Below are positions 20,439-22,406 of a DNA stretch of 64,000 bases, piece after piece. The DNA lies in the sequence record MF327005, one strand, 5' to 3'. This stretch comes from Shigella phage Sf19. The notes under the pieces were generated by a model. It saw nothing but the letters and a program-made list of their open reading frames with translations. It had not been told where the DNA came from and did not search any database. The position numbers and the translations under genes are program-made. Numbering within the stretch: position 1 is the stretch's first letter; every line of letters starts with the position of its first letter.

Positions 20439-20530
20439 AACTACCTCCTATATAAAATTTTGTATACATTTGAGTATAAAAATAAGCTATAACACCTGAC
20501 TTGTCAACAGATTTTATAGCTTATTTGGCA

Positions 20531-20790
20531 GATTTTTTATAAGGCTACTGCCATCCTTCCGCACCCGACCTGACCTCGCCCAACCTTACCTGACTGAACC
20601 ACACCCGACCAAACATCACTTAAAAACCCTTTTCAAAGACTCTTAAGTGATGTAATCGAATTTTTATGTAGCTCCGATTAACTACCCATACCTAACCCCA
20701 CCTTGCCACACCGAACCAGACCAAACCCAGCCTCATTAAAAGACCCTTTTAAAGACCTTTTAAAAAGGAGCCTCCGAAGAGGCTACCTAG
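20531..20790. repeat. composite structured non-coding element, copy A
   Basis: No ORF >=60 aa; two C+A-rich tracts with 10-bp phased ACC units (20551-20610, 20683-20732), 11-bp-stem inverted repeat (20613-20653), hairpin (20653-20680), AT-rich quasi-palindrome; homologous to 21906-22190. Confidence 0.7.
20761..20787 (-). terminator. rho-independent terminator (minus-strand sense)
   Basis: On minus strand AGCCTC-TTCG-GAGGCT followed by CCTTTTT; directly after stop of 20796-21236. Confidence 0.55.
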
Positions 20791-20795
20791 TCAAC

Positions 20796-21236
20796 TTAGA
20801 AAGGTTTTCTACGTTGCTTGTTAATGTTAGCTTTCATGGCAGCTAAATGGTTTTGCTGTTCAATCAGTCGTGAACGTTCTTGATGACTAAGTGCCATAGT
20901 GTTCACATTCTCAATCGCTTGAGTGGCTTGTTTTAAAGCACGACCAATCTTACTAGACATTTTACGTTTTGCAATAGTTGCTTGATGTTTAGGTTCCACC
21001 ACACGATAACCAACACCCATTGAAGTGACCAGATAAATCTTCTCTTCTTTAAGAAGCTTCTCAATAAACTTCTCAAGTCGATTTAGGCGTGTAAGTGCGT
21101 AAGCTTTCATTTCATCTTCGTACTTAACAATGTCACCTTGATAAGTCGGCTTCACAATACCTAAGAAGGTGTCCATCTCAGAGTGTGATACAGTATCACC
21201 GTAACTGAACTTTGCTGCTAATGCTTTTGTATTCAT
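20796..21236 (-). CDS. hypothetical protein
   Basis: 146-aa ORF bracketed by the two composite elements. Confidence 0.5.
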   Translation of the reverse strand: MNTKALAAKFSYGDTVSHSEMDTFLGIVKPTYQGDIVKYEDEMKAYALTRLNRLEKFIEKLLKEEKIYLVTSMGVGYRVVEPKHQATIAKRKMSSKIGRALKQATQAIENVNTMALSHQERSRLIEQQNHLAAMKANINKQRRKPF

Positions 21237-21238
21237 AA

Positions 21239-21841
21239 TTAAACATTACCTTCTGAAATAACTTCTACAGAAAAACGACCAAAGCGTGGACGCCAATCAC
21301 CTACACCACAAAGGTTGCCAGCATTTTCCAGAACCATCAAGAGTTCTTCTTTGGTAATTTGTTCTTCATCGAACATCAAACCAAACTCTACAGACCAGTC
21401 ACGGAAGATTGGACGGTAGCTCATAACTCGTGCTGTGCCAATCTTAACAGACTTCGCATAGATAAAGTCTTGGTTCTTAGCTAGTTCTTGTGGGTTTGCT
21501 GGACAGTTCTTAATAGTCATTGGGAAGACTACATCTGTCAGCATAATGGCTCGGTCAATTACCTTACCAAGTTTGTTGAGTTTTGCACCAGACTTGATAC
21601 AAGCCTCAATCATCTCACCGTTCATAACAAAACCTAGTTGCTCGTCGTAGTAACAAGAGGTTACCAGTTGACTCTCTGCTAAGAGAGCGTAGTCTTCGTC
21701 AGTCTTTTTACGTTTACTAGACAGAGACTTGTGATACTTTGTCAGAGGATTTAATGGGTCTGACAGAGTATCAGCATGGCTCAGGAAAGGACGAGTGCCA
21801 GTGATTTTGATATTTAACAGTTTCATAGCATTTAGCTCCAC
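21239..21841 (-). CDS. hypothetical protein
   Basis: 200-aa ORF bracketed by the two composite elements. Confidence 0.5.
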
Positions 21842-21905
21842 ACTTTAGTTGATTGTTAAGTTGTTTGTAAAGAACCCTCAACAGAAGACTCTTTAGAAAC
21901 TTGGT

Positions 21906-22190
21906 AGATTTTTAACGTGGCTACTACCATCCACCCTTACCTCACTTTACCTAACCTGACCTTACCAGACCCAACCGGACACTACCCTACCTAGCGAAAC
22001 CTCATTAAAAGACCCTCTTTAAAGACCTTTTAAAAAGGTGAGTCTCATTTTAATGTAGCTGAGACTAACTACCCTCACCAAACCGGACCAGACCCAACCC
22101 AGCCATACCAGACCATACCACACCCAACCGAACCGAACCTTACCGAGCATCACTTAAAACCCTTTTCAAAGACTCTTAAGTGATGCTGGT
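21906..22190. repeat. composite structured non-coding element, copy B
   Basis: Same modules as copy A in different order: phased tracts 21932-22001 and 22070-22139, quasi-palindrome 22000-22038, hairpin 22041-22066, inverted repeat 22147-22186. Confidence 0.7.
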
Positions 22191-22406
22191 GAGTACCCGT
22201 TGGTTTATGCTGCTCAGTATACTCACCAAATTTTCTATGTCAACAACTTTATATTAAAAATTCTCTGACTACTGCATTTACTACAAATGATAACAGAGTA
22301 AGGGCTAAGGCTGATTTGTATGTTATGCTTAACAGTTTACTTATGAAGTAAGATAATGATAAAACAACAAAAACAAACAGGATAATTGCGCTAAACATGC
22401 TAACCT

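Follow-up and report, generated by a model that had tools for sequence, protein, structure and literature searches.

We use sequence comparison to study the region between positions 20,439 and 22,406 of a 64,000-nucleotide stretch of DNA (hereafter the window) from Shigella phage Sf19 (sequence record MF327005). This region is almost certainly a type II VIPR (Viral Interference Programmable Repeat) locus of the SUSP1 clade, in which genes for small guide RNAs (vrRNAs) surround the genes for their protein partner, Vipr, and an accessory protein, Vap1. The system itself is already known: the locus is an orthologue of Escherichia phage SUSP1 VIPR, and VIPR was first reported in two 2026 preprints (bioRxiv 10.64898/2026.04.26.720920 and its cryo-EM companion, 10.64898/2026.04.26.720927). 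As described there, VIPR is built from a ~20-kDa RAMP protein (Vipr), an accessory protein (Vap) and vrRNAs, in each of which 9-16 YNNGG repeats lead into a conserved tail, a pseudoknot in the SUSP1 clade. Each repeat is occupied by one Vipr protomer, which buries GGY and presents NN, and the NN dinucleotides pair with double-stranded DNA such that each third target base is skipped (10.64898/2026.04.26.720920,.720927). The outcome is transcriptional silencing on either strand with no protospacer-adjacent motif (PAM). For SUSP1, expression of ~100-nt vrRNAs, their co-purification with Vipr and repression of targets rest on small-RNA sequencing, pull-down, and GFP and phage assays; the preprints also name a satellite with tape-measure and baseplate genes related to those of SUSP1, and their authors propose VIPR as an ancestor of CRISPR effectors.

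The evidence starts with a repeat code. The preliminary description of this region had noted C+A-rich tracts 'nearly free of G and T' and had arranged them, together with several hairpins, as two permuted copies of one composite element. We find that the tracts repeat strictly every 5 nt, as NNRCC when read on the plus strand and as GGYNN on the minus strand, which is that of the genes, and that the statement on G and T was too strong: G+T amounts to 18-30% and is confined to the two variable positions. The period-5 tracts lie at 20563-20610, 20690-20727, 21939-22001 and 22077-22144; each contains 7-13 exact ACC repeats, and those of vrRNA1 and vrRNA2 reach 14-15 units when RCC variants and edge units are included. 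In the 64-kb window, and likewise in the whole 90-kb genome of Shigella phage Sf18 (99.8% identical to the window; Mooglevirus, subfamily Ounavirinae), such tracts are found only at this locus, the runner-up trinucleotide at period 5 having 5 repeats as against 13 in the locus tracts. All modules of the preliminary description are present where it placed them, and they are better read as four tandem units, two in each of the two intergenic gaps, every unit consisting of a head hairpin, 9-15 pentamers and a 34-nt tail. Its suggestion of a pair of structured non-coding RNAs was thus right in kind, these being small guide-RNA genes, and wrong in number, as there are four. Their unit counts (9, 11, 14 and 15 for vrRNA3, vrRNA4, vrRNA2 and vrRNA1) fall within the 9-16 YNNGG repeats of the SUSP1 clade. 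The genes and their tails are as follows, the exact vrRNA ends in this phage being predicted ones:

22041..22147, minus strand: vrRNA1 gene, 15 YNNGG units; NN = TC AA TC TC TG GT AT CT AT TG TG CT CC TT GA
22041-22074, minus strand: vrRNA1 tail, 34 nt, type GGGTAGTTAGTCTCAGCTACATTAAAATGAGACT, then a T-run
21903..22004, minus strand: vrRNA2 gene, 14 units, 3 of them degenerate; NN = GA TT TA AG AG CC TG CT AA CA TA AA GA AA
21903-21936, minus strand: vrRNA2 tail, GGGTGGATGGTAGTAGCCACGTTAAAAATCTACC
20654..20730, minus strand: vrRNA3 gene, 9 units; NN = TG TT CT TC GT AA GG TA AT
20654-20687, minus strand: vrRNA3 tail, GGGTAGTTAATCGGAGCTACATAAAAATTCGATT
20527..20613, minus strand: vrRNA4 gene, 11 units; NN = TT CG GT TC CA AA TG GA CA CG GC
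20527-20560, minus strand: vrRNA4 tail, GGAAGGATGGCAGTAGCCTTATAAAAAATCTGCC

The same code holds among relatives. We took 29 related loci from the IMG/VR database and oriented them on the ligase gene (handles beginning with L denote individual loci). Across the 843 pentamers in 77 tracts of 30 related phages, the first three positions are G (0.89), G (0.99) and T (0.93, with C at 0.07), and the remaining two are unconstrained; exceptions at position 3 are always C, and those at position 1 never are. A permissive Rfam scan of 19500-23500 returned no matching family, and the Felix O1 genome paper does not mention the elements.

The tails argue for a folded RNA. Their four types can be aligned without any gap and fit an H-type pseudoknot in which 92% of cells are paired and compensatory changes affect 9 of the 11 pairs. 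In helix 1 all cells (100%) are paired and three of the four pairs are compensatory, and helix 2 has compensatory changes in six of seven; controls in which the partner columns were slid give only 28-41% paired. Because the variants come from only four paralogous types, independent compensatory changes in the tails are few. The T-run that follows the type-1 tail is terminator-like.

The third component is the protein. The preliminary description had left the two enclosed genes without a function; we find that they encode the protein partner of the guide RNAs and its accessory protein:

21239..21826, minus strand: vipr, a 195-amino-acid minimal RAMP (Cas7-like) protein; annotated ATG at 21826, longest open reading frame (ORF) from a GTG at 21841
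20796..21236, minus strand: vap1, a 146-amino-acid VIPR accessory protein

Vipr of the window shares 193 of its 195 residues with phiSUSP1 Vipr (locus L018), well above the >90% identity by which the preprint delimits the clade, and it has the RRM core, glycine-rich loop and thumb of the RAMP fold. Eight of the nine GGY-contact residues named in the cryo-EM preprint are present. The ninth, residue 175, is given in that preprint as T175, in the pyrimidine pocket, and is V175 both in the window and in the L018 copy of SUSP1, which may be a discrepancy of numbering or text. Vap1 is 98% identical to the product of the SUSP1 gene in the vap1 position, and neither enclosed protein scores above family cut-offs in Pfam. 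Distant Vipr homologues, at 23-43% identity, occur in Pseudomonas phage Medea1, Mycobacterium phage LittleE, Gordonia phages Trine and Pipp, and Listonella phage phiHSIC.

Now we consider what the guides might recognise. Using the window's baseplate-hub-like gene, we located a satellite island of E. coli/Shigella that is present in 473 of 5,426 complete E. coli genomes, and took 14 variants of it (L038-L051). The island is ~10-11 kb long, sits at yecE (a DUF72 gene), yciI-tonB or ymdF-wrbA, and encodes a large serine recombinase, an HNH endonuclease, a tape-measure protein and a baseplate protein, the genes for the last two being related to the phage's own. We searched ~519,000 positions for guide matches under the one-base-skip rule, for which the expected number of chance hits is 1e-3 to 1e-8 at the match levels observed. 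The best target of vrRNA1 (26 of 30 NN bases) lies antisense in a satellite ORF of 92 amino acids (L040 at 8198, and L044 and L049), with all 14 skip bases at codon wobble positions. That of vrRNA2 (24 of 28) is intergenic, upstream of a helix-turn-helix gene in satellite variant L048 (3494-3534). Both remaining guides find perfect targets in the gene for the large serine recombinase: vrRNA3 matches 18 of 18 NN bases in L043 (15089-15114) and 17 of 18 in L050, and vrRNA4 matches 22 of 22 in L047 (14917-14948), with every skip base at a wobble position, 20 of 22 in L046 and 18 of 22 in L044, L048 and L049. All four guides would therefore appear to be aimed at one satellite family: two at the integrase gene, one at a small ORF and one at the region upstream of a helix-turn-helix regulator.

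The skip rule can be examined on the wider set of guides. Among 63 unique guides from 30 loci, 45 reach an NN match of at least 80% at a skip of one base, as against only 5-6 when the skip is set to 0, 2 or 3 or the NN order is shuffled. At a threshold of at least 90% the count is 21 of 63 for skip 1 and 0-1 for the skip-length controls. Self-targeting is not seen in the window or the Sf18 genome, where the best matches (63-78% of NN bases) are at background.

Three of the satellites carry a vrRNA gene of their own, all on the minus strand (L041 at about 5890-6130, L045 at about 5922 and L047 at about 5229). It has a TTGACG-17-TATAAT promoter, a leader of ~45 nt, ~11 repeats and a tail that belongs to the same family and, in two satellites of the three, shows a compensatory change in stem 2; in L041, for which the downstream sequence is covered, an intrinsic terminator follows. 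The island has no annotated vipr, in agreement with a remark in the VIPR preprint.

Drawing our intuition from SUSP1, each vrRNA of this phage would be a ~100-nt transcript in which 9-16 YNNGG repeats precede a pseudoknotted 3' tail. Vipr would polymerise on the repeats, one protomer each, into a right-handed filament that hides every GGY and exposes the two variable bases. Pairing of these NN bases with a target, with every third base skipped, would then produce an R-loop triplex and block transcription, on either strand and independently of a PAM. In this scheme the phage guides likely silence a satellite that parasitises the phage.

How the locus may be transcribed can be read from the features around its genes. 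Along the minus strand, the elements follow one another as P1, vrRNA1, vrRNA2, vipr, vap1, terminator, vrRNA3, vrRNA4, P2:

22216..22243, minus strand: promoter-like site P1 (TTGACA-16-TATACT), strong sigma-70-type, agreeing with the consensus at 11 of 12 positions; precedes vrRNA1, vrRNA2, vipr and vap1
22146..22187, minus strand: head module of the inverted-repeat type, 11-bp stem, directly 5' of the vrRNA1 repeats
22005..22040, minus strand: head module of the AT-rich type, CCTTTTTAAAAGGTCTTTAAAGAGGGTCTTTTAA, separating the vrRNA1 tail from the vrRNA2 repeats
20769-20784, minus strand: intrinsic-terminator-like hairpin, after vap1
20731-20768, minus strand: AT-rich head module, 5' of vrRNA3
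20612..20653, minus strand: head module of the inverted-repeat type, separating the vrRNA3 tail from the vrRNA4 repeats
20479..20507, minus strand: promoter-like site P2 (TTGACA-17-TATTTT), within an AT-rich hairpin followed by a T-run; closes the array

P1 is kept at the same place in every relative that has the element and presumably functions as a promoter. The P2 region may serve both as the end of the vrRNA array transcript and as the start of the downstream operon. The 11-bp-stem inverted repeats and the AT-rich quasi-palindrome of the preliminary description are indeed present, and they prove to be homologous variants (67% identity) of one head module. In all four head modules a TTAAAA-17-TTTAAT-like arrangement stops just a few bases short of the first repeat, and the modules could be weak promoters or processing sites. 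A further inverted repeat, GGTGAGTA...TACTCACC, straddles P1 at 22190-22229 on the minus strand with the -10 element in its loop, and another, with a 13-bp AT-rich stem, straddles P2 at 20480-20526 with the -35 element in its loop. Relatives (L010, L012 and L021, near 4610-4680) have other stem sequences at the same promoter-straddling place, which indicates that these hairpins covary.

At the level of sequence, the repeat code, the covariation of the tails, the RAMP fold and the near-identity to a characterised Vipr are firm, and the satellite matches are statistically compelling. Several points nevertheless weigh against our interpretation of the locus. A DNA-binding fold, which is predicted for the accessory protein of this clade, was not confirmed for Vap1 by a fold search, for which the model was built on a single sequence. 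The skip bases of the perfect vrRNA3 target fall at codon position 1, not at the wobble position usual in the preprint, and for vrRNA1 and vrRNA2 there is no perfect target in the 14 satellite variants or in exact-pattern scans of IMG/VR. Both vrRNA3 and vrRNA4 lie downstream of the terminator-like hairpin after vap1, and transcription would presumably have to continue past it to reach them. Finally, transcripts, RNA ends, Vipr binding and repression are carried over from the SUSP1 work, so far available only in preprint form: the SUSP1 system was studied by experiment, whereas the one described here is read from DNA.

In other respects the comparison with SUSP1 is close. The gene order (one or more vrRNAs, vipr, vap1, vrRNA array), the YNNGG repeats, the pseudoknotted tail types and the satellite family targeted under the one-base-skip rule are the same. 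The two systems differ in how the vrRNAs are distributed (1 + 3 in SUSP1, L018, versus 2 + 2 here), in the NN sequences of the guides and in the genus of the host phage, which here is Mooglevirus, in a Shigella phage.

One might ask whether the element is instead a replication origin, a role that the preliminary description had offered as a candidate. In such a scheme a strong promoter would produce a G-rich transcript whose persistent R-loop, beside an AT-rich unwinding element, primes DNA synthesis, as at oriF/oriG of phage T4 or in ColE1. The setting fits, for the locus is placed in the replication gene cluster next to DNA ligase, and P1 lies upstream of tracts with an extreme G-over-C skew on the RNA-like strand, adjoined by AT-rich modules. 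An R-loop, however, needs no strict GGY-NN register with free NN, and it gives no account of NN bases that match a foreign satellite far above chance. The enclosed protein is a RAMP and not a replication protein. Position 4 of the pentamer is C in only 17% of cases, so T7-type primase sites (GGTC) are not enriched, and some close relatives, the Michonne-like phages, lack the element entirely. We find no support for an origin and consider one highly improbable.

We give equally little credence to a regulatory leader or protein sponge, in which a ring protein of the TRAP type would bind the GGU triplets and control downstream genes or titrate a host factor. Runs of 9-15 triplets with 2-nt spacers do resemble the TRAP site in the trp leader, and the tracts do lie in a 5' leader downstream of P1. 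The likeness extends to the mode of reading: in TRAP, with its 11 (G/U)AG triplets, as in VIPR, a protein oligomer recognises conserved triplets set 2 nt apart on single-stranded RNA. Yet TRAP has an unrelated fold and forms a closed ring, and its spacers hold no information, whereas those of VIPR are the guide. The binder that takes one repeat per subunit is already identified as a RAMP, which forms an open filament rather than a ring, and five neighbouring proteins compared with Pfam gave no TRAP-family match. A sponge would also leave unexplained why NN matches satellite genes in a 3-nt register.

A packaging signal, whether a pair of arrays flanking a terminal repeat in the manner of T7 SRL/SRR or the terminase recognition site that the preliminary description had considered, has a next to negligible chance of being correct. 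What speaks for it is that two similar arrays bracket a segment of ~1 kb and that the C+A-rich repeats, with their AAAGACC-like motifs, resemble the arrays at the ends of T7. It is contradicted by Felixounavirus Pr103Blw, in which a 581-bp direct terminal repeat defined by PhageTerm is annotated in a different, convergent non-coding region far from ligase, and by an array number that varies among relatives. In Sf18, the equivalent position is a 1.6-kb non-coding stretch (53971-55612) where two gene blocks converge, beyond the right end of the window. The 'repeat_region' features of phages warpig and humlepung, considered as terminal repeats, are the pentamer tracts. G-quadruplexes, a Rho-loading site on plus-strand RNA, and pause-site or Shine-Dalgarno-like arrays can be set aside, as none accounts for free NN bases that match satellite genes.

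Returning to VIPR, its relation to class 1 CRISPR-Cas backbones (Cas7/Csm3/Cmr4 on crRNA) lies in the use of one protomer per fixed step of RNA, in a thumb that flips bases at regular intervals and in a programmable, RNA-guided choice of target. The differences are as clear. This locus has no CRISPR array, spacer-repeat structure or further cas gene: a repeat search of 20400-22450 and Tandem Repeats Finder on the whole window gave no CRISPR repeat-spacer array, and only the RAMP fold is common to the two. The class 1 guide is a contiguous spacer, whereas the VIPR guide consists of dinucleotides spread through 5-nt repeats, and a class 1 protomer covers 6 nt whereas one of Vipr covers 5 nt, with the target read at a 3-nt period. 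We know of no adaptation module in VIPR. A looser parallel is offered by the PeSL promoter/stem-loop cassettes of T4-type phages, said to have been described by Arbiol and colleagues in 2010, in which repeated promoter-plus-hairpin modules reportedly flank small gene cassettes that are variably present. They are not known to have pentamer tracts or a guide function, whereas here the repeated modules are the RNA genes themselves.

The region is common to more than 250 Felix O1-like phage records, and its content varies widely. The relatives have between 0 and 6 tracts per locus. Tracts and the two genes are both absent from Michonne-like phages, whose locus has no more than a promoter and a covarying hairpin immediately before the next gene. 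In Felix O1/Si3-like phages the two genes are likewise absent and a single unit is kept, the tract of which is sometimes eroded, in what looks like decay after the loss of vipr. In units of this type (L030 and L037 at 4700-4770; L010, L012 and L021 at 4600-4760) the GGY register is largely lost. Other relatives have two units without the two genes. The proposal of the preliminary description that the element marks the ends of a mobile cassette survives to the extent that the two-gene block is present in some relatives and absent from others; the flanks themselves are vrRNA genes, and nothing shows mobility.

The guides differ more than their surroundings. Orthologous tracts of near-identical phages differ by whole pentamers or in nearly all NN bases, and their flanks are conserved. 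In the nearly identical phages L025 and L036 (4700-4900), for example, the first tract differs by exactly one pentamer (GGTCC) and the second has almost completely different NN bases between conserved flanks; there is no adaptation gene nearby.

These comparisons also reveal intact guides where no vipr is found. Salmonella phage BPS17W1 (NC_042097.1, 43969-44156) has two intact 10-repeat vrRNA genes behind P1, and its complete 87.6-kb genome lacks vipr and vap1 (best tblastn E-values 3.3 and 0.85). Loci L036, L025, L015 and L035 were grouped with it as orphan vrRNA carriers. In a phage collection, the intergenic element occurs in 257 phage records and vipr in only about 117 Ounavirinae, such that ~140 of the 257 related records appear to carry the element without vipr. 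At least one guide of L025, a locus that has no two-gene block at this position (a statement about position only), still pairs 87% of its NN bases with the E. coli satellite. It is possible, though on balance somewhat unlikely, that vrRNA genes can be maintained, and may even be active, in phages with no vipr of their own. A co-infecting relative might provide, in trans, the Vipr onto which such orphan guides are loaded, as presumably happens with the vrRNAs of the satellites, or the guides might have a role independent of Vipr. A duller alternative is that vipr was lost recently and the guides have not yet decayed, and the eroded Felix O1/Si3-type tracts suggest that such decay does happen. 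Orphan guides are not mentioned in the two VIPR preprints, and intact vrRNA genes in vipr-less relatives are possibly a new observation.

The genes around the locus are all on the minus strand, in the order DNA ligase (22407-23507), gap 2, the two small genes, gap 1 and a next gene whose product has a signal-peptide-like N-terminus; the neighbours of the locus are DNA ligase and small proteins of unknown function. The preliminary description was correct in that neither gap contains an ORF of at least 60 amino acids. Gap 2 is not wholly non-coding, for it holds a hydrophobic ORF of 49 amino acids (22249-22398, minus strand) that matches phrog_22006 and is present in some relatives and absent from others. 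Elsewhere, no tRNA genes were found in the 64-kb window, and a tandem repeat at 57003-57124 (45-bp unit, 2.9 copies, Tandem Repeats Finder score 131) lies beside a short period-5 CC run (57142-57177) and appears unrelated to the VIPR locus.

As an orthologue of a described system the locus is of low novelty, though VIPR itself remains remarkable: the preprints present it as a new logic of RNA-guided DNA recognition, in which the guide is spread over the dinucleotides of pentamer repeats and read by a single ~20-kDa Cas7-like protein. The oversized gaps, strand-skewed tracts and conserved hairpins around a two-gene block form a signature that can be detected without annotation. What is added for this phage is a concrete target map, from four guides to one satellite family, together with confirmation of the one-base-skip rule on an independent set of 63 guides from 30 loci.

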